Virus record (IMG/VR): IMGVR_UViG_2534681626_000018 | Strand: one strand, 5' to 3' | DNA from: a virus | Lineage: Duplodnaviria > Heunggongvirae > Uroviricota > Caudoviricetes | DNA: 30,320 bases | Shown here: positions 1,090 to 11,725 of the stretch, piece by piece | Layout of the letters: each line of letters starts with the position of its first letter | How positions within the stretch are numbered: position 1 is the first letter of the stretch | Notes under the pieces: model-generated | What the model saw: the letters and a program-made list of their open reading frames with translations, nothing else | What the model was told of the DNA's origin: nothing | The model's database searches: none | Position numbers and translations under genes: made by a program

Positions 1090-1389
1090 TCAGCCAGTCT
1101 TTTGGTCTGAGTGGTGCAAGGTTGTTGAGTCTTGCCCAATGTGTGCGAGAGCCGGGGCTATTTGTCCAGCTTCGGGATCTATTTCATCAAACATGAACCA
1201 GTCACGATACTTGCGAAAGCGTGGATGCTTAAACAGCTTCATACCTGCTTCCATAGGCATTTTTGATTTCCCTGATTCATATCCATGATATGTGTAGTAA
1301 TTAATTCCAATTAATTCAGCAAGTTCCTTAGTTTTAAGGCGTTCGGATTCACGAATGAGCTTTAATTTCTCGCTTTGTTCACTTGACAT
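1090..1389 (-). CDS. C: Immunity repressor, P2 C-like
   Basis: 99 aa from ATG at 1389 (ORF track offers a longer 105-aa version from 1407); C-terminus QIAPALAHIGQ...SDQKTG matches what I recall of P2 C; sits between int and cox, transcribed leftward. Confidence 0.8.
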   Translation of the reverse strand: MSSEQSEKLKLIRESERLKTKELAELIGINYYTYHGYESGKSKMPMEAGMKLFKHPRFRKYRDWFMFDEIDPEAGQIAPALAHIGQDSTTLHHSDQKTG

Positions 1390-1482
1390 AATTTTGCTAA
1401 TCTCCAATTATATGGCTACTTGGCAATTTGTGATGCACTCAAAAAGGCTCTAGATGGCTCCAGTTGGTGAATTACAAATCTT
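1390..1482. promoter_or_regulatory. Lysis/lysogeny switch region (expected Pe/Pc promoters and C/Cox operators)
   Basis: Non-coding gap between divergent C and cox; imperfect direct repeat ATGGCT(N2-4)TTGG at 1412 and 1454. Promoter hexamers were not confidently identified. Confidence 0.4.
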
Positions 1483-1854
1483 ATGGAGGATAGCAAAGTG
1501 ACGACAAATGTAGAAATTTCTTGTCAAACTAGCGATGAGGCAAGTTTCGAAAACGAAGCCAAACGCAAAAGCATTCAGATTTCAGAGCGCCCATCAGATT
1601 TGCTGTCGAAAGAGGGGTTTGCTCTTTACATCGGTAAGACACCACGCGCGGTGGCTGAAATGGCTAAAGCGGGAAAGCTGCCAGCCTTCTATATGACAGA
1701 CCCATTAAAACCAAGAGGGAAAGCTGAATTATGGGTAAATCGTCGTGAGTGGGATAAGTATGCGGCACAACTAGTCGAAGAGGCTCCGACCGAGGGGCAT
1801 GACTGGAAAAATCGCATTAGTTACAGCAAATCAAGACATGGCCGTGCGGCTTAA
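1483..1854 (+). CDS. cox: Cox-like excisionase / early transcriptional regulator
   Basis: Core ALYIGKTPRAVAEMAKAGKLPAFYMTDP...WV resembles the P2 Cox / 186 Apl helix-turn-helix region; ORF is about 30 aa longer at the N-terminus than P2 Cox, and a GTG at 1498 with GGAGGA 7 nt upstream is an alternative start. Confidence 0.6.
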   Translation: MEDSKVTTNVEISCQTSDEASFENEAKRKSIQISERPSDLLSKEGFALYIGKTPRAVAEMAKAGKLPAFYMTDPLKPRGKAELWVNRREWDKYAAQLVEEAPTEGHDWKNRISYSKSRHGRAA

Positions 1855-3346: not shown

Positions 3347-3618
3347 GTATTCGTATCGAAATTGGCGAACGTTATGTCGTTACCAGTGACAGCTTTCAGT
3401 TTATTCTCCACGAGAAAAAGAGAGCGGAAAGCGGTAAAAACGCCGGTCAGGAATGGCTGGCGGTGGTTGGTTATTACCCGAAATTAAGCCAGCTCGTTTC
3501 CGGCCTGATGCATCACGATATTCTGACCGGAAGCGCAAAGTCTTTTGCTGATTTAAACGCGCAGGTTGAGCAACTCAGCAGGCGTTGTTCAGAGGCTTTT
3601 GGCTCATATGGCCGTTAA
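3343..3618 (+). CDS. Hypothetical early protein
   Basis: 91-aa ORF; ATGA overlap with the upstream gene; its 3' end overlaps the A start. Confidence 0.5.
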   Translation: MSIRIEIGERYVVTSDSFQFILHEKKRAESGKNAGQEWLAVVGYYPKLSQLVSGLMHHDILTGSAKSFADLNAQVEQLSRRCSEAFGSYGR

Positions 3619-5893
3619 AGCCTCCGGGCGTTTTGTCCCTCCGTCAGCATTTGCTGCAGGCACCGGTAAGGCGTTTACCGGTGCTTATGCATGGAACGCG
3701 CCACGCGAGGCCGTCGGGCGCGAAAGACTCCTTACACGTGACGAGATGCGTCAGGTGCAAGGTGTTTTATCCACGATTAACCGCCTGCCTTACTTTTTGC
3801 GCTCGCTGTTTACTTCACGCTATGACTACATCCGGCGCAATAAAAGCCCGGTGCACGGGTTTTATTTCCTCACATCCACTTTTCAGCGTCGTTTATGGCC
3901 GCGCATTGAGCGTGTGAATCAGCGCCATGAAATGAACACCGACGCGTCGTTACTGTTTCTGGCAGAGCGTGACCACTATGCGCGCCTGCCGGGAATGAAT
4001 GACAAGGAGCTGAAAAAGTTTGCCGCCCGTATCTCATCGCAGCTTTTCATGATGTATGAGGAACTCTGCGATGCCTGGGTGGATGCGCATGGCGAAAAAG
4101 AATCGCTGTTTACGGATGAGGCGCAGGCGCATCTGTATGGTCATGTTGCTGGCGCTGCACGTGCTTTCAATATTTCCCCTCTCTACTGGAAAAAATACCG
4201 TAAAGGACAGATGACCACGAGGCAGGCATATTCTGCCATTGCCCGTCTGTTTAACGATGAGTGGTGGACTCATCAGCTTAAAGGCCAGCGTATGCGCTGG
4301 CATGAGGCGTTACTGATTGCTGTCGGGGAGGTGAATAAAGACCGTTCTCCTTATGCCAGTAAACATGCCATTCGTGATGTGCGTGCGCGCCGCCAGGCAA
4401 ATCTGGAATTTCTTAAATCGTGTGACCTTGAAAACAGGGAAACCGGCGAGCGCATCGACCTTATCAGTAAGGTGATGGGAAGTATTTCTAATCCTGAAAT
4501 TCGCCGGATGGAGCTGATGAACACCATTGCCGGTATTGAGCGTTACGCCGCCGCAGAGGGTGATGTGGGGATGTTTATCACGCTGACCGCGCCGTCAAAG
4601 TATCACCCGACACGTCAGGTCGGAAAAGGCGAAAGTAAAACCGTCCAGCTAAATCACGGCTGGAACGATGAGGCATTTAATCCAAAGGATGCGCAGCGTT
4701 ATCTCTGCCGCATCTGGAGCCTGATGCGCACGGCATTCAAGGATAATGATTTACAGGTCTACGGTTTGCGTGTCGTCGAGCCACACCACGACGGAACGCC
4801 GCACTGGCATATGATGCTTTTTTGTAATCCACGTCAGCGTAACCAGATTATCGAAACCATGCGTCGCTACGCGCTCAAAGAGGATGGCGACGAAAGAGGA
4901 GCCGAGCGAAACCGTTTTCAGGCGAAACACCTTAACCGGGGCGGTGCTGCGGGGTATATCGCGAAATACATTTCAAAAAATATCGACGGCTATGCACTGG
5001 ATGGTCAGCTCGATAACGATACCGGCAGACCTCTGAAAGATACTGCCGCGGCTGTTACTGCATGGGCGTCAACGTGGCGCATCCCGCAATTTAAAACGGT
5101 TGGTCTGCCGACAATGGGGGCTTACCGTGAACTACGCAAATTGCCTCGCGGCGTCAGCATTGCTGATGAGTTTGACGAACGCGTCGAGGCTGCACGCGCT
5201 GCCGCAGACAGTGGCGATTTTGCGTTGTATATCAGCGCGCAGGGTGGGGCAAATGTCCCGCGCGATTGTCAGACTGTCAGGGTTGCCCGTAGCCCGTCGG
5301 ATGACGTTAACGAGTACGAGGAAGAAGTCGAGAGAGTGGTCGGCATTTACGCGCCGCATCTCGGCGCGCGTCATATTCATATCACCAGAACGACGGACTG
5401 GCGCATTGTGCCGAAAGTTCCGGTCGTTGAGCCTTTGACTTTAAAAAGCGGCATCGCCGCGCCTCGGAGTCCTGTCAATAACTGTGGAAAGCTCACCGGT
5501 GGTGATGCTTCGTTACCGGCTCCCACACCTTCTGAGCACGCCGCAGCAGTGCTTAATCTGGTTGATGACGGTGTTATCGAATGGAATGACCCGGAGGTCG
5601 TGAGGGCGCTCAGAAGCGCATTAAAACACGGTCTGAGAAGACCAAACCGTCAGCAAAGAAACGGAAACCCGTTAAAACCGCATGAAATAGCGCCATCGGC
5701 CAGACTGACCCGGTCAGAACGATTGCAAATTACCCGTATCCGCGTTGACCTCGCTCAGAACGGTATCAGGCCGCAACGATGGGAGCTTGAGGCGCTGGTG
5801 CGTGGCGCGACCGTAAATTATGACGGGAAAAAATTCACGTATCCGGTCGCTGATGAGTGGCCGGGATTCTCAACAGTAATGGAGTGGACATGA
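3608..5893 (+). CDS. A: Rolling-circle replication initiation endonuclease, P2 A-like
   Basis: 761 aa from ATG 3608 (the ORF track's 3566 start is probably too far upstream); contains an HUH-type motif (GTPHWHMMLF) and the AGYIAKYISK region; length matches P2 A. Confidence 0.85.
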   Translation: MAVKASGRFVPPSAFAAGTGKAFTGAYAWNAPREAVGRERLLTRDEMRQVQGVLSTINRLPYFLRSLFTSRYDYIRRNKSPVHGFYFLTSTFQRRLWPRIERVNQRHEMNTDASLLFLAERDHYARLPGMNDKELKKFAARISSQLFMMYEELCDAWVDAHGEKESLFTDEAQAHLYGHVAGAARAFNISPLYWKKYRKGQMTTRQAYSAIARLFNDEWWTHQLKGQRMRWHEALLIAVGEVNKDRSPYASKHAIRDVRARRQANLEFLKSCDLENRETGERIDLISKVMGSISNPEIRRMELMNTIAGIERYAAAEGDVGMFITLTAPSKYHPTRQVGKGESKTVQLNHGWNDEAFNPKDAQRYLCRIWSLMRTAFKDNDLQVYGLRVVEPHHDGTPHWHMMLFCNPRQRNQIIETMRRYALKEDGDERGAERNRFQAKHLNRGGAAGYIAKYISKNIDGYALDGQLDNDTGRPLKDTAAAVTAWASTWRIPQFKTVGLPTMGAYRELRKLPRGVSIADEFDERVEAARAAADSGDFALYISAQGGANVPRDCQTVRVARSPSDDVNEYEEEVERVVGIYAPHLGARHIHITRTTDWRIVPKVPVVEPLTLKSGIAAPRSPVNNCGKLTGGDASLPAPTPSEHAAAVLNLVDDGVIEWNDPEVVRALRSALKHGLRRPNRQQRNGNPLKPHEIAPSARLTRSERLQITRIRVDLAQNGIRPQRWELEALVRGATVNYDGKKFTYPVADEWPGFSTVMEWT

Positions 5894-6378
5894 TGGCAAA
5901 AATTCACGAGGTAAAGCTGCACGCAAAATATTTCGACCTTGTACTGGAAGGAAAAAAACGCGCAGAGTTTCGGAAAAATGACCGTAATTATGAGCGCGGG
6001 GACACGTTGATTTTGCATGAATGGGTGCAGGGTGTGTTTACGGGGCGAAAGGTTGAAGCCCGGATAACAGATGTTACTGACCTGTCAGACTGGCTGGAAG
6101 ATTATGTCTTGCTAAGTATTGAGCTGCTTAATACGGGCGCATATAAGATTGTGAACTGGAAAGAACTTAGTGAACGTGGTCTGGTATTCAGAATTAATCA
6201 TGAAATTATGCATCAGCTCGGCCTTGCTGTTATGTATGAACCAGAGACGGGCTGTCTGGCGGGGCAGTGGTTGCTGCGGATGGGATATGGAACTATTCAG
6301 ATGAACAGGTGGAGCGTGCAAAGCAAAACGGGTGGCTTGGATAATGCACAGAATACCAGGCGAGATACCGCACCATAA
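5890..6378 (+). CDS. ASCH/PUA-like (DUF3850-type) domain protein
   Basis: N-terminal about 80 aa (KIHEVKLHAKYFDLVLEGKKRAEFRKNDRNYERGDTLILHEW) fits the DUF3850/ASCH motif as I recall it; about 80 aa C-terminal extension of unknown nature; start overlaps the A stop (ATGATGG). Confidence 0.6.
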   Translation: MMAKIHEVKLHAKYFDLVLEGKKRAEFRKNDRNYERGDTLILHEWVQGVFTGRKVEARITDVTDLSDWLEDYVLLSIELLNTGAYKIVNWKELSERGLVFRINHEIMHQLGLAVMYEPETGCLAGQWLLRMGYGTIQMNRWSVQSKTGGLDNAQNTRRDTAP

Positions 6379-6397
6379 AACTAAAAATATCAAGCTG

Positions 6398-6550
6398 ATG
6401 GCTATTGTTCAGCGTTTACAGCGGATTATGGTCAACGAAAATCTGACGCCCGATGAGCTGGTCGGGTGTGCCGAAATAGTTCGGGATAATTACGGGCGGC
6501 TTAACTATATCGGTCAGTCCAGAGTTGCGCCACCACCACGAAGACGATAG
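6398..6550 (+). CDS. Possible small ORF (50 aa), doubtful
   Basis: In-frame ATG within ORF 6332..6550; no convincing Shine-Dalgarno; proline/arginine-rich tail. Confidence 0.2.
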   Translation: MAIVQRLQRIMVNENLTPDELVGCAEIVRDNYGRLNYIGQSRVAPPPRRR

Positions 6551-6773
6551 AGAACGCCGCCAGTCGTGAAACTTGTTTTCAGGGCTGGCGGGGTTGAACA
6601 ACGAGCGTAGCGAGGCGTTAGTTGACAGACATATTTTTACTGCGTTGGTGCCGGTTTTTGACGGTTGAAAGGAGTTAGGTTGGAGAGCTAACAACTTACA
6701 AATATTCAAAAGTAAGCATCCTGTTGCTAACATGAGGTCGATTTTTTATGTGGATGATGCAAAAAGGATAGCT

Positions 6774-7505
6774 ATGGATACTATAATCGCTTTTCTATCA
6801 CTCGCTTTTTTCGTTGCTTTCTTCATCGGGTTAATCAAGCCATCACTGGTGCGAATGCCAAACCGCAAACGTGCAAGTGCGGTTTATCTCGGAGGAGGTT
6901 TTGTATTGAGCATAATTGGTTCAATACTCTATCCAACAGAAAAAAGCCAGCCAGTTGATAAAACTGAAACATCAACCGTTGCAGAACATAAAGTCCAAAA
7001 AACATTCGAATATGGTGAAAAAACACTCAAGGAATATCGGAACGAGTCAAAGAAAACACGACACGATATTGTGAATAGTTACATTGATTTTAAGGAAGTT
7101 CCAGCCACCGCGTCAGATGCGTTTTATGCCTGCATGAGTGAATATACATTTACCAAAGATGATGAGTTGAAACTCGGTGATGTTCTTGGGTGGTGCTTTA
7201 ATGATTATGAAAATGACCCGAATTCACTAAACAATAAAATCAATCTTGATACATTTCAGAGTAATTTTAGTGGTTGGGATGGTTCTTATCGTCCATTGGA
7301 AAAACTAATTAAAGATAATATGAACGATGATTCATCTTATAAACATGTATCAACGGTATATCATCTGGTTTTGAATAAAGACCCGCATGCCATTGTGAAA
7401 ACCACGTTTCGCGGAACTAATGCTTATGGCGGAGTGGTGAAACAGACGATTGCTGCGCGTGTTGATATAAAAACTGGTAAGGTGATATCAATCATAGATA
7501 ATTGA
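6774..7505 (+). CDS. Membrane-anchored protein of unknown function (two N-terminal TM helices + about 180-aa soluble domain)
   Basis: ATG 6774 preceded by AAAGGA; hydrophobic stretches IIAFLSLAFFVAFFIGLI and VYLGGGFVLSIIGSIL; about 38% GC against about 53% for the phage backbone; followed by an intrinsic terminator. Confidence 0.6.
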   Translation: MDTIIAFLSLAFFVAFFIGLIKPSLVRMPNRKRASAVYLGGGFVLSIIGSILYPTEKSQPVDKTETSTVAEHKVQKTFEYGEKTLKEYRNESKKTRHDIVNSYIDFKEVPATASDAFYACMSEYTFTKDDELKLGDVLGWCFNDYENDPNSLNNKINLDTFQSNFSGWDGSYRPLEKLIKDNMNDDSSYKHVSTVYHLVLNKDPHAIVKTTFRGTNAYGGVVKQTIAARVDIKTGKVISIIDN

Positions 7506-7513
7506 TATCTTAC

Positions 7514-7555
7514 AATGCCGACGCTGAATATTTAATTGGGTGTCGGCATTTTTTG
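7514..7555 (+). terminator. Rho-independent terminator
   Basis: Stem AATGCCGAC / GTCGGCATT with 19-nt loop followed by TTTTTT, immediately after the 6774..7505 stop. Confidence 0.5.
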
Positions 7556-7614
7556 ACTATTAGAGCGGCAGAACCGAGATTTGTTGCGTATGAGATTAGC
7601 ACTGCGAGAATGTT

Positions 7615-8397
7615 ATGAAAATTATAAACCAACTTAAGAAGTTTGATAAGAAAAGAACGCCAGATGATGGCCGTATTAGTTTGTTATATGAAAACGCGAT
7701 TAAGTATGATATGTACTCTGTATATATTAAAGATAAAAATGATACAGAATACCTCTTTGACTGTTTGGTTGATGGGAAGATAAAGGCTTTTAAATGGGAT
7801 GATGAGGAGCGTAGATTTCATATAAGTTCATGCTTGGATATTTCTGAGGTTACGCCTGATTCTTTTTTTGGTGTTTACTACTACCGTGCGCATGAGTTGC
7901 GATTTAACTCTTTAAATGATTTAACATTTTTAAGGGAGTTGTTCTTTAGAGTAAAGTCTAATTATGAAAATATAAAGTTTAGTCGTGAAAAATATATTTA
8001 TCGACAGCAAAAAAAAGAAATAACTGATGTGATGTTTGTTCTCTCAACGATTATAAGAATGTATCGTGAATGGGATGCTCAAACTGTGTTTAGTGAGTTT
8101 TCAATAATGACCGAAGTCGCTGGTAGTTTATGGGTATACCATGACGATAAAAACAGGATGCGTAAAGAGCTTCGTTTATGCCTGAATTCTCTTGTTCAGA
8201 ATGGAGATCTTGTTGAAACAAGTAGTGGATTTAGGCCAACAGGAAAGGCACTGAACACAATATCTACATTCAATAAAGATGAGGTGCGGTACAGAGAGAA
8301 TTTGAGTACTCAGAAGAAAATGTTTTGGGCTACTTTTTTCGCAGCAGTCGGCGGCGTAGGAAGTATGATTGCAGCTATAATAGGGCTTCTAAAATGA
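7615..8397 (+). CDS. Tail-anchored membrane protein of unknown function (soluble N-terminal domain + C-terminal TM helix)
   Basis: 260-aa ORF; C-terminal hydrophobic segment FWATFFAAVGGVGSMIAAIIGLL; about 33% GC, lysine/tyrosine-rich; no motif I can assign. Confidence 0.6.
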   Translation: MKIINQLKKFDKKRTPDDGRISLLYENAIKYDMYSVYIKDKNDTEYLFDCLVDGKIKAFKWDDEERRFHISSCLDISEVTPDSFFGVYYYRAHELRFNSLNDLTFLRELFFRVKSNYENIKFSREKYIYRQQKKEITDVMFVLSTIIRMYREWDAQTVFSEFSIMTEVAGSLWVYHDDKNRMRKELRLCLNSLVQNGDLVETSSGFRPTGKALNTISTFNKDEVRYRENLSTQKKMFWATFFAAVGGVGSMIAAIIGLLK

Positions 8398-8557
8398 GCC
8401 AACAAAATCGTATGATGAAGTATTGAGTGAAAAGCATTCTTTATATGCATTATTTTGCATGCAACATATGCTATACATTCTAGCTATGAATTGTCAGACG
8501 TGGCAGTACTTCTGTATGGTAATGCAACTGCATTAAAACCGCCCCATGAAGCGGGCG

Positions 8558-8745: not shown

Positions 8746-9780
8746 TCAGCCGTTGTCAGTGTCCAGTGAGTAGTTTTTAAAGCGGATGACCTCCTGACCG
8801 AGCCAGCCGTTTATCTCGCGGATCCTGTCCTGTAGCGGGATAAGCTCATTACGGACAAAGACCTTTGCCACTTTCTCAATATCACCCAGCGACCCGACGT
8901 TCTCCGGCTTGCCGCCCATCAACTGAAAGGGGATACGGTGCGCGTCCAGCAGGTCAGCGGCGCTGGCTTTTTTGATATTAAAAAAATCGTCCTTCGTTGC
9001 CACTTCACTGAGCGGGATAATTTTAATGCCGTCAGCTTTCCCCTGCGGGGCATAGAGAAACAGGTTTTTAAAGTTGTTGCGGCCTTTCGACTTAACCATG
9101 TTTTCGCGAAGCATTTCGATATCGTTGCGATCCTGCACGGCATCGGTGACGTACATGATGTATCCGGCATGAGCGCCATTTTCGTAATACTTTCGGCGGA
9201 ACAGCGTGGCCGACTCATTCAGCCAGGCAGAATTAAGGGCGCTGAGATATTCCGGCAGGCCGTACAACTCCTGATTAATATCCGGCTCCAGCAGGTGAAA
9301 CACGGAGCCGGGCGTGAAGGCTGTCGGCTCGTTGAAGGACGGCACCCACCAGTAAACATCCTCCTCCACGCCACGGCGGGGATATTTTGCCGGTGAGGTT
9401 TCCAGTCTGATGACCTTACCGGTGGTGCTGTAACGCTTTTCCAGAAACGCATTACCGAAAACCAGAAAATCCAGCACAAAGCGGCTGAAATCCTGCTGGG
9501 AAAGCCACGGATGCGGGATAAATGTCGAGGCCAGAATATTGCGTTTAACGTAAATCGGTGAGCTGTGATGCACGGCAGCACGCAGGCTTTTTGCCAGACC
9601 GGTAAAGCTGACCGGTGGCTCATACCATCTGCCGTTACTGATGCACTCGACGTAATCCAGAATGTCACGGCGGTCGAGTACCGGCACCGGCTCGCCAAAG
9701 GTGAATGCTTCCATTTTCGGGGCGCTGGCAGTCATTGTTTTCACCGCTGGCTGCGGTGTTTTCCCTTTTTTCTTACTCAT
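8746..9780 (-). CDS. Q: Portal (capsid vertex) protein, P2 Q-like
   Basis: 344 aa; position and length as P2 Q; Q stop overlaps the P start region. Confidence 0.9.
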   Translation of the reverse strand: MSKKKGKTPQPAVKTMTASAPKMEAFTFGEPVPVLDRRDILDYVECISNGRWYEPPVSFTGLAKSLRAAVHHSSPIYVKRNILASTFIPHPWLSQQDFSRFVLDFLVFGNAFLEKRYSTTGKVIRLETSPAKYPRRGVEEDVYWWVPSFNEPTAFTPGSVFHLLEPDINQELYGLPEYLSALNSAWLNESATLFRRKYYENGAHAGYIMYVTDAVQDRNDIEMLRENMVKSKGRNNFKNLFLYAPQGKADGIKIIPLSEVATKDDFFNIKKASAADLLDAHRIPFQLMGGKPENVGSLGDIEKVAKVFVRNELIPLQDRIREINGWLGQEVIRFKNYSLDTDNG

Positions 9781-11552
9781 CAGTAAAACTCCAGAATGGT
9801 GGATGTCAGCGGAGTGCTGATACCGGCGGTGAGTGGCTCATTTAACAGGGCGTGCATGGTCGCCCAGGCGAGGTCGGCGTGGCTGGCTTCCTCGCTGCGG
9901 CTGGCCTCATAGGTGGCGCTGCGTCCGCTGCTGGTCATGGTCTTGCGGATAGCCATGAACGAGCTGGTGATGTCGGTGGCGCTGACGTCATATTCCAGAC
10001 AGCCACGGCGGATAACGTCTTTTGCCTTGAGCACCATTGCAGTTTTCATTTCCGGCGTGTAGCGGATATCGCGCGCGGCGGGATAGAACGAGCGCACGAG
10101 CTGGAACACGCCGACACCGAGGCCGGTGGCATCAATACCGATGTATTCGACGTTATATTTTTCGGTGAGTTTGCGGATGGATTCAGCCTGGGTGGCAAAG
10201 TCCATGCCTTTCCACTGGTGACGCTCAAGTATTCTGAATTTGCCACCGGCCACCACCGGCGGTGCCAGCACCACGCATCCGGCGCTGTCGCCACGGTGTG
10301 ACGGGTCGTAACCAATCCATACCGGACGTGAGCCGAACGGATTGGCGGCAAACGGAGCATAGTCTTCCCATTCTTCCAGCGTGTCGACCATGCAGCGTTG
10401 CAGCTCCTCGAACGGGAACACCGACGCCTTGTCGTCAACAAATTCACACATGAACAGGTTTTTAAAATCGTCGGCGCTGTTTTCACGTTTGAGCTGCTCA
10501 ATGTCGAACAGCGTGCAGCCGCCTTTCAGGGCGTCCTCAATGGTGACAATCTGCCGCCACTGGCCGTCCGCACAGAGAAGCCCACCGGCAAGGGCGTTAT
10601 GACTGACGTCGATTTCCACGCGTTCGGCGGCGCTGGCGCGTCCCCGGTTAAACAGTTCACCCGACCAGAACGGGTAGGCGTCGTGCGCCAGTGTGGACGG
10701 GGGGGAGAAATAGGTCGAGCGCAGGTGACTCTGTGAGGCCATACCTGATGCCACCTTACGCAGTACCTGAAAATTCGGGATCCAGAAAATCTCGTCGACG
10801 TACAGGTCGCCGTTATGGCTCTGCGCGGTGTTGGAGTTGGTGCCGAGAAAAATCAGTTTTGCGCCGTTATTGCCCAGGACAATTGGGTCACCGGTCAGGT
10901 CAACGTCAACCAGCCGGGCAAAGGCGATGATGTATTCGCGGAACACATACGCCTGCGTTTTACTGGCCGACAGAAAAATCTGGTTATGACCGGTTTTCAG
11001 GGCGCGCAGCAGCGCCTCGCGGGAAAAATAAAACGTCGCGCCAATCTGGCGGGATTTCAGGATATCGCGGATGCGGTGCTCAAGCCCTGCGCGATACCAG
11101 TGCAACTGATATTCGAAAGACTGCTCAAAGAAAATCTGCTCCAGCTTTTCGATGGCCTCGTCACTGAAAAAATTCTTTTTCGGTTTGCGACGCCCGCCTT
11201 TGTTGCGGTTAGCGACGTTCGGATTAAGGTCTGCCTCGTTGCCGGTCTGACTGTAACGGTTGACCCGTGCCAGTCGTTCAATCTGGCGTCCCAGCAGGTC
11301 AATTTCCTTGAAGTCACCGCCGGTTTTCTGCGGTTTGATGATGAGCTGGGTCAGCCGCGCTTCCAGACTCATTTCGACACGGCTGATGGGGGCAACGCTG
11401 TCCCAGCCGTCGCGCTGTTTCCAGCTCTGCACCGTCGGGCGTTTCATCTGCAACATGGCGGCAATCTGCGGCACGGAAAATCCCTGCCAGTACAGCAGCG
11501 CCGCCTGACGACGCGGGTCGTGTAAAAGAGTGGTGTCTGTGGTGATGGTCAT
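9780..11552 (-). CDS. P: Terminase large (ATPase) subunit, P2 P-like
   Basis: 590 aa from ATG at 11552 (MTITTDTTLL...); divergent from O as in P2. Confidence 0.9.
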   Translation of the reverse strand: MTITTDTTLLHDPRRQAALLYWQGFSVPQIAAMLQMKRPTVQSWKQRDGWDSVAPISRVEMSLEARLTQLIIKPQKTGGDFKEIDLLGRQIERLARVNRYSQTGNEADLNPNVANRNKGGRRKPKKNFFSDEAIEKLEQIFFEQSFEYQLHWYRAGLEHRIRDILKSRQIGATFYFSREALLRALKTGHNQIFLSASKTQAYVFREYIIAFARLVDVDLTGDPIVLGNNGAKLIFLGTNSNTAQSHNGDLYVDEIFWIPNFQVLRKVASGMASQSHLRSTYFSPPSTLAHDAYPFWSGELFNRGRASAAERVEIDVSHNALAGGLLCADGQWRQIVTIEDALKGGCTLFDIEQLKRENSADDFKNLFMCEFVDDKASVFPFEELQRCMVDTLEEWEDYAPFAANPFGSRPVWIGYDPSHRGDSAGCVVLAPPVVAGGKFRILERHQWKGMDFATQAESIRKLTEKYNVEYIGIDATGLGVGVFQLVRSFYPAARDIRYTPEMKTAMVLKAKDVIRRGCLEYDVSATDITSSFMAIRKTMTSSGRSATYEASRSEEASHADLAWATMHALLNEPLTAGISTPLTSTILEFY

Positions 11553-11725
11553 GAATACCTCGCCGTGATGAATACACGGCAAGGCTACTGAGTCGCGCCC
11601 CGCGATTCGCTAAGGTGCTGTTGTGTCAGTGATAAGCCATCCGGGACTGATGGCGGAGGATGCGCATCGTCGGGAAACTGATGCCGACATGTGACTCCTC
11701 TAATCACTATTCAGGACTCCTGACA

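Follow-up and report, generated by a model that had tools for sequence, protein, structure and literature searches.

P2-like phages have a cargo hotspot between genes A and Q (tin/old), which was defined by Rousset et al. 2022 (PMC9122126). One validated system of this hotspot is AC1, which is composed of "2TM + 1TM + TIR" proteins (PMC9122126), and the site also holds non-defense cargo such as partition systems and toxins (Rousset et al., PMC9122126). Table S5B of the same study includes two single-protein entries for which no Pfam family is given: system #12, which has two transmembrane (TM) segments and 210 occurrences, and system #68, which has one TM segment and 62 occurrences (PMC9122126). 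Both entries are absent from the tables of systems that were cloned and tested (PMC9122126). The locus described here carries two cargo genes, and the proteins of systems #12 and #68 are nearly identical to the products of its first and second gene (hereafter gene 1 and gene 2), respectively.

A second precedent comes from coliphage 186. The record for this phage (NC_001317) carries a note on Orf97 (accession NP_052294) stating that "expression from plasmid blocks 186 infection." The RefSeq record assigns orf97 to the p95 operon, which is under LexA control, as its second gene, with tum and the partial terminator t95a ahead of it. This SOS operon, with its LexA-repressed p95 and the antirepressor tum, is attributed to Brumby et al. 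1996 (PMC5322425). Because orf97 belongs to a LexA-controlled SOS operon in phage 186, its product may act at induction rather than in the protection of the lysogen. Furthermore, the source of the reported block is a database note that concerns expression from a plasmid, and over-expression could account for the effect.

Several other phages encode inner-membrane superinfection-exclusion proteins that have periplasmic domains, including T4 Imm/Sp, HK97 gp15, and P22 SieA. The product of gene 1 resembles these proteins in that it is small, prophage-encoded, and membrane-anchored, with the bulk of the protein predicted to be periplasmic, and an infection block has been reported for its 186 ortholog. 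To our knowledge, however, gene 1 has no sequence or fold relationship to any of them, and 186 Orf97 also departs from this class because it is SOS-induced and is not expressed in the lysogen.

We analyzed a stretch of 30,320 nucleotides from the IMG/VR virus record IMGVR_UViG_2534681626_000018 (hereafter the window), whose relevant features are given in Table 1. The window has the gene order of a P2-type prophage, which runs from integrase, C repressor, and early genes through gpA, an orf91 homolog, and a small ORF to gene 1 and gene 2. To the right of gene 2 lies the cos-proximal region, followed by the portal and terminase genes on the minus strand. In the left flank, Pfam matches identify gpA (Phage_GPA, E = 7e-124) and the orf91 homolog (DUF3850, E = 1.4e-17). 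An identical copy is present in Escherichia coli strain E70, and near-identical copies are present in IHE3034, APEC O78, and MS7163.

Much of what the initial annotation had reported about this locus agrees with our results. The coordinates and shared strand of the two genes are borne out by the ORF list, and the slot that they occupy is the A-to-Q cargo hotspot of P2-like phages (PMC9122126), which is the tin/old site that had been proposed. The cargo is also low in GC content as claimed (37.7% for gene 1 and 34.7% for gene 2), compared to 53.6% for gpA, 52.9% for the portal gene, and 57.1% for the terminase gene. Hydropathy and AlphaFold models agree on two N-terminal TM helices in the gene 1 product and one C-terminal anchor in the gene 2 product. 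Likewise, no ATPase, nuclease, TIR, Sir2, or toxin-antitoxin signature had been visible, and searches of Pfam, NCBIfam, and PADLOC assigned neither protein to a family, yielding only sub-threshold noise. The description of the pair as an undescribed system did not survive, given that gene 1 is a homolog of 186 orf97 and that both genes are listed as Rousset systems (#12 and #68). We consider it probable that the slot between gene A and cos contains two autonomous single-gene cassettes that are neighbors by position and not by function.

Table 1. Features of the cargo locus and its flanks (positions within the window)
Feature	Position	Strand	Description or basis
Left backbone flank	3607..6550	+	Replication gene A, DUF3850/ASCH orf91 homolog, small conserved ORF; Pfam and IHE3034 RefSeq annotation
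Small conserved ORF	6344..6550	+	Within the left flank
Junction element	6553..6623	+	Left edge of the variable slot; hairpin at about 6553-6593, then box at 6593-6623
Gene 1	6774..7505	+	orf97-family inner-membrane protein (predicted), 243 aa
Terminator-like hairpin with U-run	7514..7555	+	Between gene 1 and gene 2; folding compared with shuffled sequences
Gene 2	7615..8397	+	Tail-anchored protein (predicted), 260 aa
Start of conserved cos-proximal backbone	8517..8556	.	Right edge of the variable slot; 186 identity and downstream alignment
Right backbone flank	8746..11582	-	Portal (Q) and large terminase (P); ORFs and IHE3034 annotation

The variable slot is delimited on its left by a junction element, in which the box GTTGAACAACGAGC-N3-GCGAGGCGTTAGTT lies directly 3′ of a strong conserved hairpin. 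This element occurs once per locus and was found in 49 of 60 sequences. The hairpin has a predicted folding energy of -26 to -32 kcal/mol (z of about -5.5), and 9 of its 21 predicted base pairs retain pairing through changes on both sides, with 13 distinct versions represented. On the right, the start of the conserved cos-proximal backbone shares 90% identity with the right-hand end of phage 186 DNA, and a downstream alignment revealed that it is kept at every gene 2 locus. Gene 1 and gene 2 are the only genes of the window between the junction element and cos.

The location of orf97 relative to the junction element depends on the type of phage. In phage 186 and in 186-type loci, the junction element is 3′ of orf97, whereas in the window and in other P2-type E. 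coli prophages it is 5′ of gene 1. The 186-type phages thus have orf97 in their backbone, as part of the tum-orf97 SOS operon, with the variable slot and gene 2 on its far side. In P2-type E. coli prophages such as that of the window, orf97 itself has turned into cargo. The adjacency of orf97 and gene 2 is therefore mostly positional, because orf97 is a backbone gene to the left of the junction element in 186-type phages.

At the protein level, gene 1 and 186 Orf97 have much in common. Both are 243 aa in length with two TM helices and a cysteine pair, and they align end to end (residues 1-243) with 76.1% identity (E = 8e-117, tblastn). They are also alike in position, as both are rightward genes near cos in a phage of the P2/186 family. 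However, gene 1 of the window is not located 3′ of tum, is without p95/LexA control, and, as cargo in a P2-type backbone, is found on the right-hand side of the junction element. Homology to phage 186 in the window is confined to gene 1 with about 50 bp upstream of it, the junction landmark, and the cos-proximal end, and the homology upstream of gene 1 begins inside the t95a region. We did not find tum within the window, and a LexA-box scan returned nothing credible upstream of either gene 1 or gene 2 in the window. A scan for sigma-70 sites likewise gave no convincing promoter upstream of these two genes. With no tum homolog in window-type loci and no credible LexA box, gene 1 stands outside the tum-orf97 SOS operon (p95, t95a, t95b). 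That arrangement is a trait of the 186 operon, and the membership of gene 1 in the protein family is unaffected.

The 243-aa reading of gene 1 begins at position 6774, and this start is common to all homologs, whereas an upstream ATG at position 6732 is not. A 257-aa reading from the upstream ATG is therefore unlikely. Hydropathy places the TM segments at residues 3-21 and 34-52, consistent with the AlphaFold model, and these are followed by a disordered linker and a domain of roughly 170 aa. Because the loop between the TM segments contains five basic and no acidic residues (+5), the positive-inside rule predicts that the loop is cytoplasmic and that this domain is periplasmic. Two cysteines, C120 and C141, show no variation among 45 sequences and are on neighboring helices of the AlphaFold model; they are in keeping with a periplasmic location, and the domain is probably disulfide-bonded. 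The best fold matches of the model are to the periplasmic acid-stress chaperones HdeA/HdeB.

Gene 1 also matches phrog_3403 over residues 1-243 of 243 (E = 2.8e-147). Its family comprises more than 163 clusters of homologs, in which 26 alignment columns are invariant, and is distributed in Enterobacterales, with farther members in Vibrio phage VHML and elsewhere. Profile searches with the gene 1 and gene 2 families against PDB sequences returned nothing below an E value of about 1. Judging from its alignments, gene 1 belongs to an exclusion gene family that has already been described, that of 186 orf97. The exclusion role suggested by the initial annotation is thus plausible, and for gene 1 it has a precedent in the record note on 186 Orf97.

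Two other candidate relationships were rejected. A possible link of either gene to P2 Tin had been raised, but BLASTP comparisons gave E values of at least 2.9 for gene 1 and no match for gene 2, and no P2 record was among the tblastn matches, which excludes this relationship at the sequence level. AC1, which we take to be the system called Rst_2TM_1TM_TIR by DefenseFinder, occupies the same hotspot and has superficially the same 2TM-then-1TM order as gene 1 and gene 2. However, its 2TM and 1TM proteins are 126 and 187 aa, respectively, unlike the 243-aa and 260-aa products of the window genes. The best BLASTP comparisons with AC1 proteins gave E values of 2.1 to 2.2 over 22 to 23 residues, no TIR gene was found between the junction element and cos, and there was no Pfam TIR match.

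Among 5,426 complete E. coli genomes, relatives of gene 1 were found in 95 and relatives of gene 2 in 16, and the pair as it occurs in the window was found in 6. Gene 1 can instead be followed by a gene for a 232-aa TM protein (strain BS74R-D and phage 9W) or by genes for a 198-aa protein and an FRG-domain protein (KK19-02), and these alternative 3′ neighbors are related neither to gene 2 nor to one another. Furthermore, gene 1 is carried by 33 deposited phage genomes, none of which carries gene 2. The pair is also adjacent in prophages of Enterobacter, Klebsiella, and Cronobacter, where the homologs are 67-79% (gene 1) and 55-60% (gene 2) identical.

For gene 2, we tallied the neighbors at 55 loci, drawn from both IMG/VR contigs and genomes. 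Its immediate upstream neighbor is orf97/gene 1 at 31 of these loci, tum/DinI at 8, the reverse transcriptase of a type VI retron at 8, gpA with no other cargo at 5 (L048-L052), and another gene at 3, such that 24 of the 55 loci are without gene 1 upstream. Gene 2 is always the last gene before cos. When alleles of gene 2 that are at least 90% identical were grouped, two clusters were found to mix loci with and without orf97. Ten diverged E. coli copies of gene 2 that were sampled are behind a pair of genes for an HTH protein and a reverse transcriptase, which constitute a complete type VI retron protein set (RT_VI, E = 2.5e-106; HTH_VI, E = 2.2e-31). We rejected gene 2 as a retron effector, as this protein set is complete by itself and gene 2 mostly occurs without a reverse transcriptase. 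There is no reverse transcriptase in the window, Rfam gave no retron ncRNA in locus L015, and the Rfam matches around the cargo of the window were sub-threshold and spurious only.

The confident AlphaFold model of the gene 2 product includes a beta-rich domain (about residues 32-97), a long helix (105-131), and a winged helix (about residues 139-208). Its C-terminal part is another long helix ending in a TM anchor at residues 241-259, as predicted by both hydropathy and AlphaFold. In the model, the center of the protein forms a three-helix bundle with a beta-hairpin wing, and this part can be superposed on established winged-helix domains. Conserved basic residues (R181, K184, and K211) map to the putative recognition helix and wing, and these are suggestive of nucleic-acid binding, although only as a hint. 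MarR-type regulators, kleisins (Scc1, MukF, JetA/B), and the retron Ec86 effector are similar to gene 2 at the level of the winged-helix fold, with 8-18% identity, but they do not have the N-terminal beta domain and C-terminal tail anchor of the gene 2 superfamily.

Close relatives of gene 2 form 30 clusters with 15 invariant columns, and a profile search of 1.84 billion representatives expanded this group to a superfamily of at least 583 clusters at 50% identity (E ≤ 1e-3). Almost all of the matched proteins are 250-300 aa and are aligned end to end. A C-terminal hydrophobic tail is present in all 132 full-length representatives of the superfamily, of which 128 are without any other TM-like segment. 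Comparison of 61 distant relatives with Pfam, NCBIfam, and PADLOC revealed no family and only a faint HTH_45 resemblance. A Foldseek search of the viral structures in BFVD with the gene 2 model gave no match below E = 0.009, two distant members scanned against viral contigs gave no match, and a literature search by protein accessions found no paper. Species-representative genomes yielded one gene 2 locus only, in Pantoea. We conclude that gene 2 is a catalogued, uncharacterized single-gene cargo and is the only part of the locus that has real potential for novelty.

Members of the superfamily are not restricted to P2/186-like prophages. One is encoded in the accessory region of a filamentous phage of Vibrio cyclitrophicus (hhalign probability of 94.9%), and members were found on 17 plasmids. 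The contexts of three of the plasmid genes were inspected, and two of these are beside defense genes. On an IncFII plasmid of Klebsiella, the gene is directly 3′ of a restriction endonuclease gene and is near Shedu and CcdAB, and on a Yersinia plasmid, also of the IncF type, it is between genes for an HEPN protein and a DUF2971 protein, near HigBA; CcdAB and HigBA are toxin-antitoxin modules. In the third case, a Salmonella plasmid, the gene adjoins sopAB. The distribution of the superfamily across plasmids and phages favors, but does not prove, a role against mobile genetic elements.

We weighed these data against three explanations that compete with two autonomous cassettes. Gene 1 and gene 2 might form a single co-evolving two-component exclusion system made up of a sensor and an effector, as the initial annotation had considered. 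The genes are indeed adjacent and co-directional in the window, and the gene-neighborhood check that had been proposed confirmed that the pair recurs, both at 31 of 55 gene 2 loci and as diverged homologs in the three other genera. However, the pair occurs in only 6 of the E. coli genomes, compared to 95 that have gene 1 and 16 that have gene 2, and thus the inheritance of the two genes is not obligate. Each gene is common without the other, gene 1 is elsewhere followed by unrelated proteins, and near-identical gene 2 alleles are found both with and without orf97. The adjacency that does exist can be attributed to position, given that orf97 is backbone to the left of the junction in 186-type phages, and the phenotype noted for 186 Orf97 comes from a phage without gene 2. 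Moreover, the two genes are divided by a strong terminator-like hairpin (-21.6 kcal/mol, z of -6.6, with 0 of 200 shuffled sequences folding as well) that is followed by UUUUUU, although transcription may read through it. The predicted soluble domains are on opposite sides of the inner membrane (periplasmic for gene 1 and cytoplasmic for gene 2), and Rousset et al. curated the two genes as separate systems. We therefore regard a two-component system as very unlikely, and the alternative of two independent exclusion proteins, which the initial annotation had also offered, is the better reading. With 31 of 55 loci showing adjacency, gene 1 and gene 2 may still interact functionally in a facultative manner.

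A second explanation is that one or both genes are not anti-phage genes. Gene 1 could serve an envelope function during SOS or induction, for example as a periplasmic chaperone-like protein or in the timing of lysis or induction, and gene 2 could act as a regulator tethered to the membrane or as an accessory factor of mobile elements for DNA tethering or partition. Expression of 186 orf97 from the LexA-repressed p95 operon together with the antirepressor tum (PMC5322425) and the HdeA/HdeB fold matches are consistent with such a role for gene 1. For gene 2, the resemblance of its winged helix to MarR-type regulators and to kleisin or MukF domains, the plasmid homolog that adjoins sopAB, and the presence of non-defense cargo in the hotspot (PMC9122126) point in the same direction. 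In opposition to this explanation, the 186 record note reports that Orf97 blocks infection, and gene 2 occupies a defense-dominated slot, lies beside defense genes in two of the three inspected plasmid contexts, and has a pattern of gain and loss like that of defense cargo. On balance, a non-defense role for one or both genes seems improbable. Even less credible, to the point of being nearly negligible, is the proposal that gene 2 works as an accessory or effector module for any upstream neighbor (orf97, retron VI, or tum) and is shared among them. At the five loci where gene 2 directly follows gpA, there is no other cargo for it to serve. Moreover, the proteins of the type VI retron form a full set even without gene 2, the neighbors of superfamily members are wholly different on plasmids and in the inovirus, and the winged-helix similarity is generic.

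Under the preferred explanation of two autonomous cassettes, the first would be a 186-type orf97 that has moved into a P2-type backbone. Its product is predicted to be an inner-membrane protein that has a two-helix hairpin anchor and a disulfide-bonded periplasmic domain. The most likely role, on the basis of the note in the 186 record, would be superinfection exclusion of 186/P2-like phages, and the protein would probably act by hindering the entry of the phage genome at the level of the periplasm or the inner membrane. These relationships connect 186 orf97, a gene whose exclusion phenotype is nearly forgotten, with Rousset system #12, which about 2% of complete E. coli genomes carry. The allele in the window is therefore an easy experimental entry point. 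They also illustrate that hotspot adjacency alone is no evidence of a system, as it is accounted for here by position.

The second cassette would be one of many alternative cargos in the last slot before cos. Its product is predicted to have a cytoplasmic beta domain and a winged helix that are tethered to the inner membrane through a C-terminal tail anchor. Its location and neighbors suggest that gene 2 most likely encodes a self-contained protein directed against phages or other mobile genetic elements, which would recognize nucleic acid or protein of the invader at the membrane. A more specific and rather tentative proposal is that the superfamily, as defined by its beta domain, winged helix, and tail anchor, represents a new self-contained anti-phage or anti-plasmid protein of myoviral and filamentous prophages and conjugative plasmids, which might detect the nucleic acid of an invader at the inner membrane and use its anchor to mount a response. 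If its role is indeed in defense, the family would bring a single-gene, membrane-tethered winged-helix protein into the defense repertoire. Regardless, gene 2 typifies a sizeable and structurally coherent family, as yet unannotated, that is found on both phages and plasmids.

In P2/186-like phages, a conserved junction element marks where the variable slot between replication gene A and cos has its left edge. It occurs once per locus and was found in 49 of the 60 sequences that we examined. The element consists of a strong hairpin of approximately 40 nt (ΔG of -26 to -32 kcal/mol), nine pairs of which are supported by compensatory changes, followed directly on its 3′ side by a near-invariant box, GTTGAACAACGAGC-N3-GCGAGGCGTTAGTT. 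It lacks a U-run, matches no family in Rfam, and is not annotated in the phage 186 record. It may serve as a landmark for recombination, as a site of RNA processing, or as an attenuator.

Variability begins ahead of the junction element, as indicated by the C-terminal end of the orf91 homolog (DUF3850/ASCH), where the window and a comparison prophage (L001) diverge. The prophages are otherwise near-identical (85% identity for this difference versus 98-100%), and the window's version of the protein includes a DUF7415 segment.

Downstream of gene 1 (the 186 Orf97-family protein), other E. coli prophages carry alternative cargo, encoding either a 232-aa protein or a 198-aa protein together with an FRG-domain protein. 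None of these three proteins was matched by PADLOC. P2-type prophages of a different E. coli lineage have, in the same hotspot, all the protein genes of a type VI retron (HTH_VI and RT_VI, assigned by PADLOC), and a homolog of gene 2 (the tail-anchored winged-helix protein) with 55% identity directly follows them. An Rfam search of the retron-bearing hotspot did not find an ncRNA.

Small ORFs on Pseudomonas plasmids and in an Aeromonas phage match only the last ~70-80 residues of gene 1 (~161-241) with ~50% identity, and these residues form a subdomain composed of a helix and a four-strand sheet. These sequence matches suggest that the subdomain also circulates by itself. The gene 2 superfamily is common to myoviral and inoviral prophages, since a member is carried by a filamentous (Tubulavirales) phage of Vibrio cyclitrophicus in its accessory region, downstream of a Zot-like assembly gene.

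Coordinates of features in the window and in comparison loci (L-numbers); H-numbers are homology matches
Feature	Sequence	Position	Strand	Remark
Junction element	window	6553-6623		hairpin and box; left edge of slot
Junction element	phage 186 (L018)	4241-4311		conserved hairpin and box
orf91 homolog	window	5890-6378		
orf91 homolog	L001	3293-3745		
232-aa protein	L002	6005-6703		N-terminal TM helices; 3′ of gene 1; also phage 9W
198-aa protein	L003	5990-6586		soluble; 3′ of gene 1
FRG-domain protein	L003	7002-8357		3′ of gene 1
Type VI retron protein set and gene 2 homolog	L015	4599-5835		also L019-L021, L039, L042, L046, L054
Gene 2 superfamily member, 259 aa	Vibrio phage PQ189292 (L059)	4214-4993	minus	
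Gene 1 C-terminal subdomain matches	Pseudomonas syringae and P. cerasi plasmids			H166-H170
Gene 1 C-terminal subdomain match	Aeromonas phage LPM4			H92
cox-position ORF	window	1483-1854		
GC-poor segment	window	1201-1600		38.5% GC

Elsewhere in the window, the 123-aa product of the ORF at the cox position has a long extension at its N terminus, whereas Cox in related prophages is annotated at ~91 aa. A segment in this part of the window is GC-poor.
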